Under the pieces are notes generated by a model. That model was not told where the DNA came from. It searched no databases and saw only the letters and a list, made by a program, of their open reading frames with translations. Made by a program: the position numbers and the translations under genes. This document shows, in pieces, positions 8,776 through 57,166 of a stretch of 64,000 bases of DNA. Each line of letters opens with the position of its first letter. Within the stretch, counting starts at the first letter, position 1. Origin of the DNA: a virus (taxonomy: Duplodnaviria > Caudoviricetes); the IMG/VR virus record IMGVR_UViG_3300044675_007236; one strand, 5' to 3'.

Positions 8776-9252
8776 CTAATCCGAAGTTTTGTTTTGTCTT
8801 TCAAACACGTCGACAACTTCATAATGCCCATACTCGCCAGGCTTCCAAGGTGATAAACCTTTGTACTTGCCTGCAATGGTCATAAGCTGAACAAACACGT
8901 CCGGCAAAAAGCCAGTCGGTAAAACAAAAGCAATCGTAGCAATCTGGCCCGGCACTATTGATTCGTGAACGGAATAACGTTCTCTGCCGACTGCATTCTT
9001 GTAGTAAACTCTGTGCCATCTTTTTTCCCTTAGTTCAACGTCGATTGCAGTGTCCCAGTGAATTTTCTTTACTGCGTCTTGATGCGACGAAAGTAGTTTC
9101 GACGCCATTACCATGTTCGATCTATGCCATGTCGACAAAAACAAAATCTTGTCTGTTAGGTTTCTGGCAAACAAAAATCGACCAGACTCCTTGTCCTTAG
9201 CATTACCCAAACAAGGCGACGTAAATCGTATCTGAACGTTGTAATCTTTCAT
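8776..9252 (-). CDS. Putative solo RAMP/Cas7-like protein
   Basis: N-terminal VQIRFTSPCLG, internal ERYSVHESIVPG and C-terminal Gly-rich loop AGKYKGLSPWKPGEYGHYEV follow the RAMP pattern (beta1-TP..G; G..R..G.G.F.V). Recognised by eye only. Confidence 0.45.
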   Translation of the reverse strand: MKDYNVQIRFTSPCLGNAKDKESGRFLFARNLTDKILFLSTWHRSNMVMASKLLSSHQDAVKKIHWDTAIDVELREKRWHRVYYKNAVGRERYSVHESIVPGQIATIAFVLPTGFLPDVFVQLMTIAGKYKGLSPWKPGEYGHYEVVDVFERQNKTSD

Positions 9253-17992: not shown

Positions 17993-19321
17993 AATTTTTT
18001 CCGTTTGTCTGTTAATCGCGATCGTCCGAACTGTTGGCTGGTACTATTCGTGTAAAAAATTTGTCGTGGTTTAGGTTGATTGCCGCACCGGTTTCTGTCC
18101 TGTCTGCCTTTCGCTCTACCATCGGCCCCATTCGGCTTTCAATATTGCCGGTAGCTTTTTCCACTATTTCGACGTAAAACATGGGTATGTTCGCATCGTC
18201 CATGCTGTTTAAATCCATATCACCAAAACTACGTATTGCCATGTTATTAACCTCGATGGTTTGTTGAAAAAAACACTCAATCGGCGTTTAGTCGCTACGT
18301 TAAACGTTCGACGATAACGGTTTTAACGGTTTCTGACGTTGCCGGTATTAAGAGAAAACAGCTCGTAGTTTTGATTTTAATACCGCAGCGACTTGCAAAC
18401 GCTTGCGAAGTTGCACCTGCGTTTTTTGTAGTTTCCGGCTCTGCGAATACACAGCAATCACCTACAGCCATTATTTTAAGTTCTCTAGCTGAAACCTTTT
18501 TAATTTTTGTTGATTTAGCTATTTTTTGTCGCAGAACATTAGCTGCATTTGCCAACTCCCAATCGTCTTCTCGTGGTATTTCGTTGCGACTGTCGACAAT
18601 TTTAATCGCGTCTTCAATCGACATTTTCTTTTTTTGTTTCATTTTTTAGTTCTGACACCAGGCTTGAAAATACGAAACGTAAAGCTAACTTTAGCTTACT
18701 TCTGGTTTGATCTGAGCTAGTAATTCAAGCATCGCGGTTTCAACTTCTTCTTTGGTTGCTAACTGCAATTTTAGCTGAAGTGCGCGTTCGCGTTTTTGAT
18801 GCGTCGACAACCGACGTAGTTCGCGGCTAAAAAGGTCTACGGCAGTTTCCCATGTACGTTTGCCTTTTAAACATTTGTAAGTTTTAAAATCCCACCTTAT
18901 ATCTTGGCTATAAAGTTCAACAGATAGCTCTACTTCGATTTTGACTTTACTTCCGTCGTCGCGACGTATGATTTTTTCGTGTCTCATGTTATCTCCTAGT
19001 AACCACAGTCTTCTAGTTACATAAACAGGTTATTTACCGCCACAAAGCTATGTCGAAACTCCGGACCCATAACTTCTAATAGTTGTCGAAGCTTTTCTAA
19101 TGCCTTTTTAACCGTAACAGCGGTTTCTTTATCAATTTTGCCTTCAGTTTGTCGTATTTTTATGTATCGCTTAAGTGCTTGTCTTTCTAATTCCGCTATT
19201 TGGCTCATGTTTGCTCCTATTTTGCGTATTTTGAAGTAATGTTTAAGACCTTGGTTTTCGGTATACATTTCATTTGTCGCTGCCCGTCGGTTTAAAACAG
19301 GCAGAATAAAAGCTTACGAAA

Positions 19322-19624
19322 CTAACGTCTTCCGTTTCCAGAGACAGTAGCGTAGCCGTCTCCCCAGCCGCTGCCATCGCCGTAACCGTTGCCGTCGCCA
19401 GAGCCGTAGCCGTAGCCGTAGCCGTCGCCGTAGCCGTAGCCGTAGCCGTAGCCGTAGCCGTTGCCGTAGCCGTAGCCGTTGCCGTCGCCAGAGCCGTAGC
19501 CGTAGCCGTTGCCGTCGCCAGAGCCGTTGCCGTGGCCGTAGCCGTAGCCATAGCCAGAGCCGTCGCCCCAGCCGTCGCCGTAGCCGTTGCCTACTGGTTT
19601 AAAATTTTGTTCAACGTTTGGCAT
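19322..19624 (-). CDS. Gly-Tyr/Asp/Asn repeat cassette, type B (MPNVEQxFKPVG...ATVSGxGRR)
   Basis: GGC-NNN hexamer periodicity; AGGAG RBS within the upstream cassette end; conserved terminal boxes. Confidence 0.7.
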   Translation of the reverse strand: MPNVEQNFKPVGNGYGDGWGDGSGYGYGYGHGNGSGDGNGYGYGSGDGNGYGYGNGYGYGYGYGYGDGYGYGYGSGDGNGYGDGSGWGDGYATVSGNGRR

Positions 19625-19627
19625 TAT

Positions 19628-19951
19628 CTAACTCCTTCTTCCACTGCCAGAAACAGTAGCAAAGCCGTAGCCGTAGCCATCACCGTAGCCGCAGCCGTAG
19701 CAATAAGCGGCACCGTTGCCGTAGCCAGAGCCGTAGCCGTCGTCAGAGCCATATCCTTTGCCGTAGCCAGCGCCGTAGCCAGTGCCGTAGCCGCTGCCGC
19801 AACCCCAGCCGCTACCCCATCCGTCGTTGTAGCCCCAGCCGCTGCCCCAGCCGTTACCGTCGCCGTAGCCATCGCCGTCGCCGTCGCCGTCGCGGTTGCC
19901 TACTGGTTTAAACGTATTTGGCAGTACTATCAGTTCTTTTATTTGACTCAT
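19628..19951 (-). CDS. Gly-rich repeat cassette, type A (PNTFKPVG...AAYCYGCG...FATVSGSGRRS)
   Basis: Same periodicity and terminal boxes; 123 bp identical to 56888-57010. Confidence 0.7.
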   Translation of the reverse strand: MSQIKELIVLPNTFKPVGNRDGDGDGDGYGDGNGWGSGWGYNDGWGSGWGCGSGYGTGYGAGYGKGYGSDDGYGSGYGNGAAYCYGCGYGDGYGYGFATVSGSGRRS

Positions 19952-28785: not shown

Positions 28786-29333
28786 TTGTCACCCAACTTA
28801 GATAAAATAGCGTATAAAAAAACAATGAAAACAATAAAAGCAGCAAGTTCAGGGCTTATTTGACTTAGGTTTGTTTGTGCGATCATTTGGTTCCTCCCAG
28901 TTGATAGCCAGTATTCCTTCGGAAACAGCTTTGGCTAGTTTGGTTATATCAGGATAGTGAATTGGTCTACCGCCGGTGCGTAAAATAAAACCGTTTTCAA
29001 TTTTGTTGATACGAACTGTGGTAGTTGTATCGTTACCTTCAGATGTAACTGAAAATTTAGGTAGCATAGTGATTCTTTATTTGAGACAAGAACAGCACCA
29101 CCAGTAGTTGGTTGTTTCGCTAGCCTGGCACCAGTACTTTTCGCTAGGCTTTAGTTTTTTGCGACAAATACCGCAGACTACATCTCTAGATCTGGCGGGA
29201 AGTGTTCTTAAAACAGGACCGCATTCCTCTGCTGGTTTTTCTTGCTTAGACTGTTTTGGAATTTCTTGTTTGGTGGGTTTTAAGTCTTCTTTTTTAGTTG
29301 TACCCTCAAGCTCAGCCAAAAGATCTTCAATGT

Positions 29334-49554: not shown

Positions 49555-51351
49555 TTACTCCTTTGCTCGAGTTACTTTACGAACGACACGTTTTGGGGCT
49601 GACACTGCGTCTATTGCATTTTTTGCTTTGAAGCGGTCTCCGGTTTCTGCACAAATGCAACCGGCAGCTTCTGCCCATTCCAGCAGATTATCCATCTGCT
49701 CTTTATTCTTCTCGTAAGACGGTGTTATCCACTTTGATGCTGTCTTGATATCTACTCGCTGCATTTCTGCCAGACGACAGCACGAAGCGATGTCAGCCGG
49801 AGTCCAGTACTGATCAGTTGGTAGATCTTGGTCTGCAAGATCGTGTCGCTGCATATACATTTCCCAGGCGTGGCTCTTTGCATCGCTGCCTGGAAACCCA
49901 ACAAAGAACAAGGCGTCGACACGCCCAGAACGTGTAATCTCGTCTGGCAAGTTTGCGATGTTATTTGCAGCCGACAAAATCACCGTGCTTTTTTGATCGT
50001 TAAACCAAGTTAGCAAAGTGCCAAGCATACGGTTTTCTAGCCCGCCCGACTCACCGGATCCGCCCTGCGGCAAGAATCGCTGAAATTCGTCGATACCCAG
50101 GATGCCGCCAATTTCTTCGACTGTACGAAGCATGTTAGCTAGAATCTTGTCAGTGTCGCCAACCCACTTTGAATACAGGTTGCTAGCTTGCATCGAAGAA
50201 AGCGGAAGACCGAACTCACCTGAACAGCACTTCATAGTCATTGACTTACCGGTACCTGGAACACCAAGCATCAGCACGTGTCGTAACTTAGATCGGTCTG
50301 GAACGTCAGGGCTAAAACCGTTTTTAAGGTAAGACTTAAGCCCGTTTAGTCCGATGATCGAATCGAATGTATAGAAGTTACGCTCGGGTCGGTAGAGTTT
50401 GTTGAAGCTGTCAACTGGCATTGGCTCAAGCCACTGCTCAATCTTTTTGCCGTTTTGCATGAAACTGATACGAGCTCTAATCTCGTCTTGGTTCACATAC
50501 TCTTCTGAAAGCATTGTTACGTCGACAGCTTCGCGTAACTCTTCTATCGTTTCTTCGGGCCATAGTTTGATCGCTTGCTGAAAAGCGGGCGACCAAACAT
50601 CTAGCTTAGAGCTACGAGACAGGTGTTTGGCTTTTCGGTGAAAAAGGAAACCAGGATCAAACGAACCTTTTTCCGACAAGGACTCGGCACCGTACTGGTT
50701 CACCTTTGCTCGAGACAAACCCGCGGTGGCTTCAATAGACTTATCGCTTACCTCAGATTCGCTGTCAAGATTTGACAAAAGCGCTTGACGTTCTTCTTCG
50801 TCCGGCAAGTTGTGATGAAGAACTTCGAAGTGCTCGACAAGCTCGTAAGGTAATTCGACGTCCGGTGCAGTCTGTGCGATCAAAAATACACGAGCGTTTT
50901 GACCTTCTAAAATTAGCTTCTGGGTTTGAGCCAGAAGAAACGCATCGACTTGACCCCCGGCAGTGCCGTTTGGAAAAAGAAATCGGTCGTAATTCCTAAC
51001 CAGAACAACAAACTTTTTGACAGACTCGTCCTGCATGTTTTCTAGCGAAACACCGCTCTGCTCGATTGCAATACGATTACGTGCGTTATTGATCGCAAAA
51101 TCCATTGCAGCGTACAGTGTAGCTTTTTGTTTGCCAAATGCATCTTCACTTACTGCCACCGTTTCGCCTTTTATGTCGGTCAGGCCGTCAACCGGATCCC
51201 AGTTAAGTAGAATGATACCGTCCGGGCCAGTCGTGTCGACGTTGTCAATTGCATAGTTAAGAAGTTCAATGTGAACATCTTCTGGCTCCAGTGATGTTAC
51301 ACATAGCCCGGCTTGACCCGATGCAAGATATTTCAAAATCGTCTTAAGCAT
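49555..51351 (-). CDS. AAA+ ATPase (Ycf46-like)
   Basis: GVPGTGKS Walker A, LYSKWVGDT, GIDEF Walker B, AANNIANLPDEITRSGRVD SRH. Confidence 0.9.
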   Translation of the reverse strand: MLKTILKYLASGQAGLCVTSLEPEDVHIELLNYAIDNVDTTGPDGIILLNWDPVDGLTDIKGETVAVSEDAFGKQKATLYAAMDFAINNARNRIAIEQSGVSLENMQDESVKKFVVLVRNYDRFLFPNGTAGGQVDAFLLAQTQKLILEGQNARVFLIAQTAPDVELPYELVEHFEVLHHNLPDEEERQALLSNLDSESEVSDKSIEATAGLSRAKVNQYGAESLSEKGSFDPGFLFHRKAKHLSRSSKLDVWSPAFQQAIKLWPEETIEELREAVDVTMLSEEYVNQDEIRARISFMQNGKKIEQWLEPMPVDSFNKLYRPERNFYTFDSIIGLNGLKSYLKNGFSPDVPDRSKLRHVLMLGVPGTGKSMTMKCCSGEFGLPLSSMQASNLYSKWVGDTDKILANMLRTVEEIGGILGIDEFQRFLPQGGSGESGGLENRMLGTLLTWFNDQKSTVILSAANNIANLPDEITRSGRVDALFFVGFPGSDAKSHAWEMYMQRHDLADQDLPTDQYWTPADIASCCRLAEMQRVDIKTASKWITPSYEKNKEQMDNLLEWAEAAGCICAETGDRFKAKNAIDAVSAPKRVVRKVTRAKE

Positions 51352-52043
51352 TATTCTTCTTCTTTCTGTTTAAATTCACCGCAAAAATCTGTTTTCCACT
51401 TTACTTTTGTACTGGGGTAACGAGTACAGCGTATTTGCTGTTCGTGTTTGTTCATTGCTTCCAGCCAGTTTGATCTCAGTATGTTGTGCACAACTCTATC
51501 GAAATTATGCGGCTCAGTCTGCCAACTAAAACACAAAAATCTGTGTGTAGTTTTTTCCGGAGTATCTGGCGGCTGCTCGCCGCTTGGCGGCGGTATAGTT
51601 CTGGCATAACAGCAGTTCTTACACATCTGTCGCATAGGTTTTGGTTTGTCTTCCTTTAATTTCATAGTAAACGGATTTTGTCATCTCTTCAGCTAGTTTT
51701 TCAATTTCTTGGTGATCCCGTGACCAACAAGAAGTATTTTCCCGTTTTGGAAAGCCAGAATTCCACCATTCTTCGTTTGTGTCTACGCAAGGTGTTTCCG
51801 ATAGCCCGTCGATTACCACCTGCGTCATTTCGTTGACGATTACTTTTCACCAATGCAGCGAGAAATTGTCAATGTGATTTACCTGAGCTGTTAGAATAAC
51901 TTTGTTATCGTTTAGAAAACGTTGACGTATGTCCGGTAAGGCTAAAAGCAACTTTTGTCGTAACGGTGCGTCTATAGTTTTTTCTTTGACCGCTGCTTGC
52001 CTTTTTGCAAGCAGCGGGTAGAACTGATTGTTGTGCGACACTG

Positions 52044-52295
52044 TTAAACTCTTCTTCCGCGGCCAGAGACAGTAGCACAGCCGTAGCCGCCGCCATCGCC
52101 GTGGCCGTCGCCGTCGCCGTAGCCGTGGCCGTCGCCGTCGCCGTAGCCGTATCCGTCGCCGTTGCCGTCGCCGTTGCCGTTGCCGTAGCCGTTGCCGTAG
52201 CCCCAGCCGTAGCCCCAGCCGTAGCCGTAGCCGTAGCCGTTGCCGTAGCCGTCGCCACGACCTACTGGTTTAAAACTTTGTTCAACGTTTGGCAT
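52044..52295 (-). CDS. Gly-rich repeat cassette, type B (solo copy)
   Basis: MPNVEQSFKPVG...CATVSGRGRR; followed by an 11-bp perfect hairpin at 51990-52017. Confidence 0.7.
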   Translation of the reverse strand: MPNVEQSFKPVGRGDGYGNGYGYGYGWGYGWGYGNGYGNGNGDGNGDGYGYGDGDGHGYGDGDGHGDGGGYGCATVSGRGRRV

Positions 52296-52492
52296 TACTG
52301 TCTAACTCCTACAGCCGCCTTAATTTCAGGTAGGTTATACTCTGGCTTTAGCGTCTGCTTGTCAGGTTGTTCGCCAATCAACGCGTCTTTTAGCGGTTGC
52401 GTTGCCTTGACACAGCTGCCGCCGGTGTAGCCGTTTGCTTCGATGGTTGTGTTACCGTCGACAGCTACAATGATTGTGATTATCTTTTCCAT
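52295..52492 (-). CDS. DUF2997-like protein
   Basis: I.V..DG...IEANGYTGGSCVKATQPL..AL...KPEY. Confidence 0.75.
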   Translation of the reverse strand: MEKIITIIVAVDGNTTIEANGYTGGSCVKATQPLKDALIGEQPDKQTLKPEYNLPEIKAAVGVRQ

Positions 52493-56210: not shown

Positions 56211-56510
56211 CTAGACGCCCCAGTTAGCGTCAACCGGGATGCTGAAGATTTCCGCGTTTTGCGGGATATCGACAGGCTGGTCCAGTTTCTTCAATGTAAC
56301 CTTACTGCTCTTTGGATCTTTCAGCATCCCGTCGAACCCAATCTGCTCCCACTTGAAAACGTGTACGGCATTTTGAAGCAAAAGTCTACCGTTTTCTCGT
56401 GTCAGATCTCCAGCGAAAATCCATCCGCGATCAACTACGACCACGTGCCGGTTTCCGGTAGTTTCCCGAACAAACTTTACACCATCAACAATTACAGAAT
56501 CATTAGCCAC
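56211..56510 (-). CDS. DUF6948-like small beta-rich phage protein
   Basis: HVVVVDRGWIFAG....LQNA.HVFKW..IGFDGML; from recollection, a family often found next to GDGYG-repeat genes. Confidence 0.65.
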   Translation of the reverse strand: MANDSVIVDGVKFVRETTGNRHVVVVDRGWIFAGDLTRENGRLLLQNAVHVFKWEQIGFDGMLKDPKSSKVTLKKLDQPVDIPQNAEIFSIPVDANWGV

Positions 56511-56612
56511 AATAAAACCCTTTCAAAAGACTAAACCACTCTGACAACACCGGAAACATTCTCAGTGTCGCTGCCCGCCGGTTTAAAGCAGGCAGAATAA
56601 AATCTTACTAAA

Positions 56613-56885
56613 CTAACGTCTGCCGCTTCCAGAGACAGTAGCAAAGCCGTAGCCGCAGCCGTCGCCGTCGCCGTTACCGTCGCCGTCGCCGTAACCGTAG
56701 CCGTTGCCGTTGCCGTTGCCGTTGCCGCCACCGTTGCCGTCGCTGGTGCCGTAGCCGTAGCCGTAGCTGCCGCCACCGTAGCCGTTACCGTCGCCGTAGC
56801 CGTAGCCGTAGCTGCCGCCACCGTAGCCGTTACCGTCGCCGTAGCCACGACCTACTGGTTTAAAACTTTGTTCAACGTTTGGCAT
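56613..56885 (-). CDS. Gly-rich repeat cassette, type B
   Basis: MPNVEQSFKPVG...FATVSGSGRR; downstream non-coding block shared with the 19.3-kb locus. Confidence 0.7.
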   Translation of the reverse strand: MPNVEQSFKPVGRGYGDGNGYGGGSYGYGYGDGNGYGGGSYGYGYGTSDGNGGGNGNGNGNGYGYGDGDGNGDGDGCGYGFATVSGSGRR

Positions 56886-56887
56886 AG

Positions 56888-57166
56888 CTAACTCCTTCTT
56901 CCACTGCCAGAAACAGTAGCAAAGCCGTAGCCGTAGCCATCACCGTAGCCGCAGCCGTAGCAATAAGCGGCACCGTTGCCGTAGCCAGAGCCGTAGCCGT
57001 CGTCAGAGCCGTAGCCGTAGCCGTAGCCGTAGCCGTTGCCGTAGCCGTAGCCGTTGCCGTCGCCAGAGCCGTAGCCGTAGCCGTTGCCGTCGCCAGAGCC
57101 GTTGCCGTGGCCGTAGCCGTAGCCATAGCCAGAGCCGTTGCCTACTGGTTTAAACGTATTTGGCAT
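56888..57166 (-). CDS. Gly-rich repeat cassette, type A (chimeric)
   Basis: MPNTFKPVG...; mosaic of the two 19-kb cassettes. Confidence 0.7.
   Translation of the reverse strand: MPNTFKPVGNGSGYGYGYGHGNGSGDGNGYGYGSGDGNGYGYGNGYGYGYGYGSDDGYGSGYGNGAAYCYGCGYGDGYGYGFATVSGSGRRS

Follow-up and report, generated by a model that had tools for sequence, protein, structure and literature searches.

The five cassettes of GGY plus a variable triplet found in the window, a stretch of 64,000 nucleotides from the 175-kb genome of a lake phage, are very probably paralogous protein-coding genes, which specify small, disordered proteins rich in glycine and tyrosine and belong to a widespread phage family. The encoded proteins open with an F-K/R-P-V/I-G motif, continue with a (Gly-X)n tract whose X residues are chiefly Tyr, Asp and Asn, and close with a basic tail of the T-V-S-x-x-R-R type. 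Family members normally lie directly 3' of a conserved gene of about 100 aa with a predicted Sm-like (DUF6948-like) fold, in clusters of early or recombination genes. In the jumbo phage studied here, the family appears to have expanded to five dispersed copies, and to have been unhooked from the partner gene. No published account of the GY-repeat/Sm-fold gene pair was found.

All the cassettes announced by the original prediction were recovered, as five ORFs of 83-107 aa made of GGY+triplet units, and all reside on the minus strand (Table 1). An SD motif is located 5-11 nt ahead of the ATG in each of the five genes. The final codons of c19b, GGA AGA AGG AGT, double as the SD motif of c19a; both c19b and c56b are followed by the next ATG within 2-3 nt of the gene end, and the ATG of c52 overlaps the stop codon of a DUF2997 gene (TAATG). 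The region of about 0.9 kb which holds c52, between the DUF2997 gene and a gene encoding an AAA ATPase, is absent from a syntenic relative. The c19 and c52 copies are preceded by unrelated genes. As judged by sequence comparison, c56b looks like a chimera, the N-terminal part being similar to c19a, the C-terminal part identical to that of c19b. The c56a gene carries 3-nt register shifts and an internal 45-nt duplication.

Table 1. Repeat genes, partner gene and stem-loops in the window
Feature	Coordinates	Strand	Description
c19b	19628..19951	-	GY-repeat gene, 107 aa; first of tandem pair; N-box TFKPVG, C-box ATVSGSGRRS
c19a	19322..19624	-	GY-repeat gene, 100 aa; 38 GGC among Gly codons; 6-nt register unbroken
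c52	52044..52295	-	GY-repeat gene, 83 aa
c56b	56888..57166	-	GY-repeat gene, 92 aa
c56a	56613..56885	-	GY-repeat gene, 90 aa
Partner gene	56211..56510	-	99 aa; motifs VVVVDRGWIFAGD and IGFDG; predicted fold Sm/LSm-like
3' stem-loop after c19a	19280..19304	-	9-bp stem lacking a U tract; paralogue of 56571-56595
3' stem-loop after c56a	56571..56595	-	Paralogue of 19280-19304
Stem-loop downstream of c52	51990..52017	-	11-bp, unrelated to the other two, no U tract

The cassettes are period-6 arrays of 30-45 units each (29-41 copies according to TRF). Throughout the 175-kb genome, runs of at least five GGYNNN units are confined to the five ORFs and to a sixth tract (genome positions 29165-29230), and none is found on the plus strand or elsewhere. 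The sixth tract, which is short, lies outside the window and lacks both boxes, may be the remnant of a family copy. The early observation that Gly is encoded nearly always by GGC proved right, since GGC accounts for 160 of the 187 Gly codons (86%) in the five ORFs, versus 28% in the other long ORFs of the phage; the genome is not AT-rich as had been stated, its GC content being 42-51%. TAC, AAC and GAC in the five ORFs are likewise C-ending at a level of about 90% relative to the alternatives, and together make up 117 of the 179 triplets of the window units. Triplet entropy amounts to 3.2 of the possible 6 bits, and unit positions 5 and 6 are mainly A and C. The conserved nucleotide boxes thought to bound the cassettes, TTTAAACCAGTAGG at the 5' end and GCTACTGTYTCTGG at the 3' end, were both found in five of five. 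In the alignment of the five genes the former encodes FKPVG, the latter ATVSG, within ends of the form ATVSGxGRR(S/V). Because other phages encode the same peptide boxes with many different codons, the nucleotide identity of the boxes among the five copies reflects recent paralogy.

The same architecture occurs in at least 117 IMG/VR contigs, retrieved with the pattern F[KR]P[VI]G(xG)5, in which the third bases of the Gly codons were left free. Family statistics refer to 87 unique homologues, 76 of which are complete. Both in these 87 sequences and in the five window copies the F-[KR]-P-[VI]-G motif is found within about 15 residues of the start. At the X position of the tract, family-wide, Y is found in 50% of cases, D in 20%, N in 18% and S in 6%; the C-terminal tails, which follow a T-[VIC]-S-type box, have a mean net charge of +2.8. 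Codons of the N-box vary among the 87 members, freely so in their third bases: Phe is encoded by TTT in 67 and by TTC in 20, Pro by CCA in 41, CCT in 26, CCG in 12 and CCC in 8, and 10 and 7 codons are used at the Lys/Arg and Val/Ile positions, respectively. Register shifts of 3 nt, 41 in all, have been identified in 26 of the 76 complete members, and the frame is never broken; the non-repetitive peptides at the N- and C-terminus are in mutual frame across at least 76 complete members. Of the two readings originally put forward, that of real Gly/Tyr proteins is thus favored by the presence of SD motifs and ATG codons, by peptide motifs maintained with synonymous variation in at least 87 homologues, by shifts of the tract register which are always multiples of 3 nt, and by the partner gene found upstream of most homologues. 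The GY protein is modelled by ESM with a pLDDT of 0.39, which indicates disorder. Searches of Pfam and PHROGs with the GY proteins gave spurious low-complexity matches only, and the narrower peptide patterns PNVEQxFKPVG and G[FYC]ATVSGxGRR gave zero matches. Looking for related loci in IMG/VR with one protein as the query yielded 353 pattern hits, of which none was confirmed, probably owing to the low-complexity filter of tblastn. Comparing the cassettes by blastn to phage and plasmid collections returned composition-driven matches only, which yet led to the examples in cultured phages described below.

A conserved gene of about 100 aa is located directly upstream of the GY gene in 78 of the 87 homologues, mostly with stop/start overlap; the remaining nine are either located at the edge of a contig, or represent the second or third copy of a tandem. 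The sole partner gene detected in the window is downstream of the c56 pair, in the reverse of the usual order. This is taken as a derived arrangement, and not as a ground to exclude the cassettes from the family. The AF2 model of the partner protein has a pLDDT of 87.9, and its top 50 Foldseek matches in the PDB are all Sm/LSm chains (E 0.02-0.1, TM 0.45-0.73). No homology to Hfq or Sm proteins was detected at the sequence level, and the likeness is one of fold only, at a TM of about 0.5. The partner has no match in Pfam at E 0.1, the PF22253 model none in the genome at E 10, and alignment with one DUF6948 protein by hhalign is insignificant (E 0.23). Remote kinship with DUF6948 is nonetheless likely, if unproven, because PF22253 (DUF6948) is carried by 22-30% of the members of the ESM-Atlas clusters nearest to the partner. 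At E <= 0.001, the partner family alone accounts for 1137 matching proteins in a database clustered at 90% identity; a tblastn search of cultured phages with the partner protein gave zero matches. Among the observations counted against the preferred explanation are the presence of a partner gene near no more than one of the window loci, that of the c56 pair, and in reversed order, and the failure of the partner to reach the Pfam threshold for DUF6948. By analogy with Sm-fold proteins carrying low-complexity tails, the repeat protein and a putative Sm-like ring probably act together. The former would provide, in trans, a low-complexity arm which is rich in Tyr and associates with itself, and which would tune nucleic-acid binding or form condensates early in infection.

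The synonymous sites of the tract had been described as unusually uniform. This is true, and holds family-wide, as GGC makes up 93% of the Gly codons across the 87 members, in genomes ranging from 36 to 64% GC. Relaxed sets exist: the four paralogues of L124 have 52 GGC (42%), 55 GGT (44%), 11 GGA and 6 GGG, GGA accounts for 83% of the Gly codons in L105, and L020 and L047 are mixed. Family-wide, Phe in the tract is encoded by about 32 TTC and 3 TTT, whereas Phe in the N-box is mostly TTT; the C-ending bias is therefore specific to the tract, and not gene-wide. An explanation of the GGC bias by translational selection alone was considered and rejected, since Phe and Pro codons of the N-box are not C-ending, and the phage has no tRNA genes for Gly, Tyr, Asn or Asp. 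The tract would rather grow and shrink by duplication and loss of whole units derived from GGC-TAC, codons being inherited by copying, and the residues frequent at X (N, D, H, F, S, C) would each be one step from TAC, the final C being kept. GGC dominance confined to the tract, and relaxed in degenerate relatives, fits the descent of the units from GGC-TAC by duplication. Rare GGT variants travel along with internal duplications, as predicted by copying without selection.

At 93%, the level of GGC exceeds that expected from simple drift of a copied unit, which counts against the preferred explanation, and some nucleotide or codon selection may act on the tract. According to the strongest alternative, the genes are translated and the tract is also selected at the nucleotide or RNA level, which would keep GGC-NAC; candidate causes include binding by the Sm-like partner, autoregulation by that same protein, or a need to avoid sequences that form G-quadruplexes, resemble SD motifs or give off-frame stops. 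This is unlikely, even though the third position of Gly is less variable than the first position of X in the window tracts (0.70 and 1.63 bits of entropy, respectively), GGC prevails regardless of genome GC, and the fold predicted for the partner is of the RNA-binding type. The codon table may be read in the same sense, since the three sense frames all stay open in any run of NNC codons, G4 motifs would arise from GGG-NNN repeats, and GGA or GGT followed by GAY would give SD-like strings. However, the protein architecture is kept in members with GGT, GGA or mixed codons, duplications carry the rare GGT variants along, and the bias is weaker in irregular tracts. The C-ending fraction correlates with tract regularity (Spearman rho 0.39, p 9e-5); for GGC alone the correlation is weak (rho 0.18, p 0.08), and the measure of regularity penalises Gly-Ser tracts. 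Nor were matches to any Rfam family found in and beside the cassettes.

Conservation past the stop codon at the 19.3- and 56.6-kb loci, reported at the outset, extends for about 49 nt, and includes a hairpin devoid of a U tail. The paralogous hairpins differ by one compensatory change, C-G to U-A, in the RNAfold structures. The shared hairpin is not an element following every cassette, but is found 3' of c19a and c56a only, the final gene of each tandem pair; the separate hairpin attributed to the 52-kb copy is there, and also lacks a U tail. The hairpins after c19a, c56a and c52 would be ordinary 3' stem-loops of transcription units, functioning as terminators or RNA stabilisers.

In four runs of lake metatranscriptomes, contigs cover the whole region as pieces of 150-270 nt at a depth of 2-5, too fragmentary to tell RNA ends, strand or discrete species, and the repeat bins are inflated by paralogues and by other organisms. 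Three RNA contigs lead from the start of c56b into DNA unlike the 19-kb stretch, with loose ends that correspond to the DNA immediately upstream of c56b.

The second reading originally proposed saw in the cassettes guide RNAs with a 6-nt period for a solitary RAMP. Guides of a comparable make have been described in VIPR systems, in which vrRNAs consist of alternating GGY/NN repeats, one repeat being bound by each RAMP protomer (bioRxiv 10.64898/2026.04.26.720920, 10.64898/2026.04.26.720927). The vrRNAs are non-coding, feature 9-16 repeats over about 100 nt, with hypervariable NN and an invariant structured 3' tail, and flank vipr; the repeat variants, YNNGG, NNNGG, YNNNG and NNNNG, all have period 5, and the solved Vipr pocket excludes purines at the third position of GGY (same references). 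The cassette transcripts could be a 6-nt-period variant of vrRNAs, used by the array-less Vipr-like RAMP encoded at 8776-9252, with the protein holding GGY and NNN reading the target. GGC makes up 86-93% of the Gly codons, and the C-terminal G-loop region of the RAMP aligns (E 0.001, single comparison) with an L063 protein located between period-5 arrays. Under the VIPR repeat definition (5-nt period, at least 4 units) no period-5 array is present anywhere in the 175-kb genome, where runs of four YNNGG or five NNNGG units are missing on both strands, which counts in favor of the guide reading.

We nevertheless hold the guide reading to be very improbable. The cassettes have period 6, and all the described variants 5; their triplets are not hypervariable (TAC, AAC and GAC fill 65% of 179 units), an invariant 3' tail is missing, as the hairpin is common to two of the five copies only, and c19b and c56b run straight into the following ATG. 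Cassettes are 10-48 kb away from the RAMP gene, and do not adjoin it. The two entities do not travel together, as a RAMP was found in none of 50 cassette-bearing records, 20 of which are at least 90% complete, and a GGC-NAC tract in one of 25 RAMP-bearing records, the 24 which lack it including a complete 205-kb genome with terminal repeats. L063 has a true period-5 array locus and a GY gene as separate entities, and the GGA codons of L105 are purine-ending, though the Vipr pocket excludes purines at that position. Free GGN drift among homologues, which the original prediction had itself listed among the findings that would speak against guides, is observed in a syntenic relative. A dual use of the genes, in which the expanded GGY-NNN transcripts would be bound by the Vipr-like RAMP as a 6-nt-period guide or sponge while the protein is also made, appears just as improbable.

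Least credible of all is the view that the tracts are DNA repeats, either hexanucleotide microsatellites without a function or elements akin to attachment sites, in which ORFs are accidental. In its favor, GGC-NAC repeats are open in several frames, and the (KMGCCG)35 sequence of Iodobacter phage phiPLPE has in the past been cataloged among DNA repeats, with a speculative role as an attachment site (PMC3391216). Against it, the conserved terminal peptides are always in mutual frame across no fewer than 76 complete members, the stop codon of the upstream gene usually overlaps the start of the GY gene, an SD motif is found ahead of every start, and five intact copies have been kept in one genome.

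Though failing for the cassettes, the idea of guides anticipated a newly published mechanism, that of VIPR guides made of GGY and variable bases, and its failure keeps period-6 repeats of Gly codons from being taken as vrRNAs in VIPR surveys. [quoted passage not shown] Should the two proteins make up a unit that binds RNA or forms condensates early in infection, bacterial viruses would have a simple counterpart to the Sm/LSm proteins that carry low-complexity tails. The jumbo phage is an unusual case, featuring five dispersed GY copies uncoupled from the partner gene.

Pairs like those of the family found in the window occur in cultured phages. Rheinheimera phage vB_RspM_Barba has an Sm-like (DUF6948-type) and a Gly-X repeat protein (QNO03357/QNO03358), Ralstonia phage NK-7 the pair XCO36016 and XCO36015, the latter called 'fibroin heavy chain-like', and Pectobacterium phage Taid the pair XDF89793/XDF89792. 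In all, the small (Gly-X)n proteins abound in Tyr, Asp, Asn and Ser, are annotated as hypothetical and are encoded by GGC-rich hexamers, and the repeat gene adjoins a small-barrel gene of about 100-130 aa. The window differs by hosting five copies at three loci, and a partner downstream of one pair, whereas cultured phages have one to three tandem copies, and partners located upstream with stop/start overlap. Moreover, neither the FKPVG box nor the basic tail is present in the repeat proteins of NK-7 and Taid, whose partners, unlike that of the window, score above the Pfam threshold for DUF6948. The cassettes share with VIPR vrRNAs the short tandem repeats starting with GGY, in a phage genome encoding a Vipr-like RAMP, but differ in being ORFs with conserved peptide ends, a 6-nt period and triplets of low diversity, unlinked to RAMP genes.

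Arg-Gly tails are found on eukaryotic SmB, SmD1, SmD3 and LSm4. Acinetobacter Hfq has a C-terminal domain made of 'GGFGGQ' repeats (PMC11617691). As in these proteins, a predicted Sm-fold core is accompanied in the phage by a glycine-rich, aromatic-containing disordered repeat of variable length with a charged tip. In contrast to Acinetobacter Hfq, core and repeat reside in separate genes, the repeat is strictly Gly-X and rich in Tyr, Asp and Asn, and RNA binding is predicted by analogy. Low-complexity proteins rich in Gly and Tyr include silk fibroin (GAGAGY), the [G/S]Y[G/S] domain of the FUS type and the high-Gly/Tyr keratin-associated proteins, and resemble the phage GY proteins in composition, predicted disorder and evolution by slippage. 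Pfam KRTAP is found in 16% of the members of one ESM cluster neighbouring the GY protein. To our knowledge, no homology links the phage GY proteins to the silk, FUS or keratin-associated types, from which they are set apart by their very small size and by conserved terminal motifs.

The five cassettes of GGY plus a variable triplet are confirmed as minus-strand ORFs with common end motifs, named here by kilobase locus and encoding Gly/Tyr (GY) repeat products. The window belongs to a 175-kb IMG/VR phage record estimated to be 84% complete; with a GC content of 42-51%, the genome is not AT-rich as first assumed. Mean column identity in the protein alignment of the five products is 67%; an N-terminal FKPVG, a C-terminal ATVSGxGRR and a central tract with Gly at nearly every second residue are invariant. 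In a genome scan, GGYNNN runs of at least 5 units were found only in the five GY genes and in one short sixth tract, with none on the opposite strand or elsewhere in the genome. The sixth, a GGC-NAC tract on the minus strand outside the window (genome 29165-29230; window -22981 to -22916), includes …HIGDGYGWGYGNGYGYGYGDGYGG… and has neither FKPVG box, ATVSG box nor ATG. A long ORF in another frame terminates within it as an Arg/Leu-rich tail, and the tract may be what remains of a decayed copy, or else a site of recoding.

GY repeat genes of the window
Gene	Position	Strand	Description
c19b ORF	19628-19951	-	GY repeat gene
c19a ORF	19322-19624	-	GY repeat gene
c52 ORF	52044-52295	-	GY repeat gene
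c56b ORF	56888-57166	-	GY repeat gene
c56a ORF	56613-56885	-	GY repeat gene

The notion that the cassettes encode real proteins is supported by translation signals, conserved peptide boxes and frame-preserving shifts. A Shine-Dalgarno (SD)-like motif lies 5-11 nt before each of the five ATGs, and in the tandem pairs the final codons of the upstream gene (GGA AGA AGG AG) are the SD of the downstream one. At least 117 IMG/VR contigs were matched by a degenerate pattern, F-[KR]-P-[VI]-G and then five x-G units, in which Gly was coded GGN, so that GGC was not favoured. Family ORFs measure about 60-135 aa from N-box to stop (median 86), and share the architecture M-x(0-8)-F-[KR]-P-[VI]-G (the N-box), a (G-X)n tract, and a T-[VIC]-S-type C-box with an Arg-rich tail. 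Third codon positions of the N-box vary freely among 87 unique members: Phe is TTT in 67 and TTC in 20, Pro is CCA in 41, CCT in 26, CCG in 12 and CCC in 8, and ten and seven codons are in use at the Lys/Arg and Val/Ile positions, respectively. The boxes are therefore peptide motifs, and their nucleotide identity inside the window is recent paralogy. Register shifts of 3 nt, 41 in total, occur in 26 of the 76 complete members, and none breaks the frame between N-box and C-box; c56a carries such shifts along with an internal 45-nt duplication. TAG terminates four of the five cassettes and 23% of long ORFs. Read-through would fuse c19b to c19a, which continue in one frame across the TAG. An amber-suppressor-type tRNA (anticodon CTA, labelled Pyl by ARAGORN) is found outside the window (genome 1206-1278), and a distant homologue, contig L001, had been called with TAG=Q.

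The unusual uniformity of synonymous sites holds family-wide. GGC makes up 160 of 187 Gly codons in the five genes, against 28% in the other long ORFs of the phage, and the five genes' Tyr, Asn and Asp codons are about 90% C-ending. Across the family, whose genomes have 36-64% GC, 93% of 3018 Gly codons are GGC, compared with a background of 42%. The phage carries no tRNAs for Gly, Tyr, Asn or Asp. The C-ending bias is limited to the tract, where Phe is about 32 times TTC and 3 times TTT, whereas N-box Phe is mostly TTT, N-box Pro rarely CCC and C-box Gly often GGA. Gene-wide translational selection is thus rejected as sole cause. The bias is best read as the outcome of copying: all units would descend from one GGC-TAC founder, their turnover would be faster than point mutation, and selection on composition (Tyr plus acidic/polar residues) would retain non-synonymous unit types in the pool. 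The common codons following Gly (AAC, GAC, CAC, TTC, TCC, TGC) are exactly the one-step neighbours of TAC keeping the final C, tracts contain higher-order duplications of 12-45 nt in which rare GGT variants are copied along, and the bias decays in irregular tracts. A further nucleotide-level selection on the tract, for example against G4-forming or SD-like strings, is an unlikely addition to such copying.

Homologues drift at synonymous sites. Four tandem paralogues of the syntenic relative L124 use GGC 52, GGT 55, GGA 11 and GGG 6 times and mix TAC/TAT and GAC/GAT, while retaining boxes F-M-P-V-G and T-V-[EQ]-S; elsewhere in the family, GGA accounts for 83% of Gly codons in one member, and two more have mixed usage. 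Drift of this kind had been named at the outset as evidence that would refute the original suggestion of GGY-NNN transcripts as guide RNAs of 6-nt period for the lone CRISPR-type protein (RAMP, 8776-9252; Vipr-like), an idea that now appears highly improbable. The intuition came close to a real mechanism, since VIPR guides (vrRNAs) are built on GGY repeats. Those bound by Vipr RAMPs carry 9-16 YNNGG repeats, one 5-nt repeat per protomer (bioRxiv 10.64898/2026.04.26.720920, 10.64898/2026.04.26.720927). According to these preprints, Vipr reads GGY specifically, the third base excluding purine, NN is hypervariable, each tract ends in an invariant structured tail, vipr is flanked by vrRNA genes, and the known variants NNNGG, YNNNG and NNNNG have period 5 too. 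In contrast, the cassettes have a period of 6 nt, 65% of their triplets are TAC, AAC or GAC, they lack a common 3' tail, their tracts are coding, and the RAMP gene is 10-48 kb away; every testable defining feature of vrRNAs is missing. Moreover, 3-nt shifts are tolerable for a protein frame, but not for a RAMP backbone in fixed 6-nt register. A RAMP homologue is detectable in none of 50 GY-bearing phage records, 20 of them at least 90% complete. In turn, among 25 RAMP-bearing records collected with a profile, a GGC-NAC tract occurs only in G075, the closest relative; the 24 without one include a complete genome of 205 kb with terminal repeats. GY and RAMP families are thus inherited independently, and the explicit test of the link in the window, new to this work, is negative.

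The two kinds of repeat can coexist as distinct things. On its minus strand, the 8.6-kb IMG/VR contig L063 has period-5 arrays with 5-11 units of YNNGG (L063:6232-6433 and L063:7788-7871), and between them an ORF of ~250 aa (L063:6948-7700) that weakly matches the solved SUSP1 Vipr (PDB 36pp, E 0.17). In a single BLASTP comparison this ORF also matched the window's RAMP in its C-terminal G-loop region (E 0.001). It is probably a genuine VIPR locus, and a separate partner and GY pair lies roughly 1.3-3 kb from the arrays. In four lake metatranscriptomes, the region of the window is represented only by short RNA contigs of low depth, too fragmentary to show RNA ends.

Nucleotide conservation past the stops of c19a and c56a, and a hairpin of its own at c52, had been correctly spotted. 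The former extends for ~49 nt and folds as a 9-bp stem-loop without U tract; the latter is an unrelated 11-bp stem-loop. The one compensatory pair in the 9-bp stem supports the structure, but no special role. An Rfam search gave no match, and the likeliest reading of the hairpins is that they are 3' stem-loops belonging to the transcription units.

Clustering of flanking ORFs revealed that a ~100-aa protein with motifs VVVVDRGWIFAGD and IGFDG directly precedes the GY gene, usually with stop/start overlap. By HMM, 78 of 87 members have this partner immediately upstream, and the remaining 9 sit at contig ends or are second/third tandem copies; the partner profile matches none of the 25 RAMP-bearing records. 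The partner family includes 1137 protein matches (E <= 0.001, database clustered at 90% identity); all those bearing a name are hypothetical proteins, and no Pfam domain occurs among the 120 matches listed. The best 50 PDB matches of its AlphaFold model (pLDDT 87.9) are all Sm/LSm proteins, with modest scores (E 0.02-0.1, TM about 0.5). PF22253 DUF6948 is found in 22-30% of members of the nearest ESM-Atlas clusters; the window's protein falls below the Pfam threshold for it. A few genes after the partner, relatives of the phage have a 91-aa gene that faintly matches CsrA (PF02599; L124:5335-5610 and syntenic loci).

New in the window are five dispersed GY copies that have become uncoupled from their partner. 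A single partner gene was found there (56211-56510, minus strand), downstream of c56a and past the hairpin, and c19 and c52 copies have unrelated genes upstream. In L124 (8198-10188) a DUF2997 gene abuts an AAA ATPase gene; in the window (51350-52492) the two are separated by about 0.9 kb with c52, a hairpin and two or three small ORFs, which suggests that a GY copy was inserted there. These differences indicate that GY copies dispersed in this lineage. In its N-terminal part c56b matches c19a, and over the final ~40 residues it is identical to c19b; it looks like a recombinant and shows exchange between the dispersed loci.

GY genes sit among Erf, YqaJ, helicase and Ref-like early genes, and their product is predicted to be disordered (ESM pLDDT 0.39) and has a Tyr/Gly/Asp/Asn composition with a basic tip. 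From these features and the near-obligate link to the Sm-fold partner, the GY protein would most likely work with the Sm-like protein by providing it in trans with a low-complexity arm that self-associates. A second family of low-complexity small proteins beside a small-barrel gene may exist in the RAMP-bearing 157-kb phage record G054. Four tandem genes (L156:1416-2500; 72-83 aa) start with MIRKVT and end with KTRSAK. Their Ser/Trp/Gly repeats are encoded by an array of GGTCTK hexamers with GGY out of frame, and a 105-aa protein that weakly matches DUF2642 (E 0.04) is encoded ~0.8 kb upstream of them.

No paper was found on DUF6948 or on the Sm-like and GY gene pair, and the phage phiPLPE repeat is listed only as a DNA repeat, (KMGCCG)35 (PMC3391216). 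Yet the same kind of pair occurs in cultured phages. The HMM recognises the partner of Rheinheimera phage Barba at 1.6e-13. Ralstonia phage NK-7 encodes a (Gly-Ser/Tyr/Asp)n protein after one of DUF6948 type (E about 1e-30), an arrangement repeated in Pectobacterium phage Taid. The nearest described analogue of the proposed pair is the Hfq of Acinetobacter, whose RNA binding and autoregulation are influenced by how many GGFGGQ repeats it has (PMC11617691).
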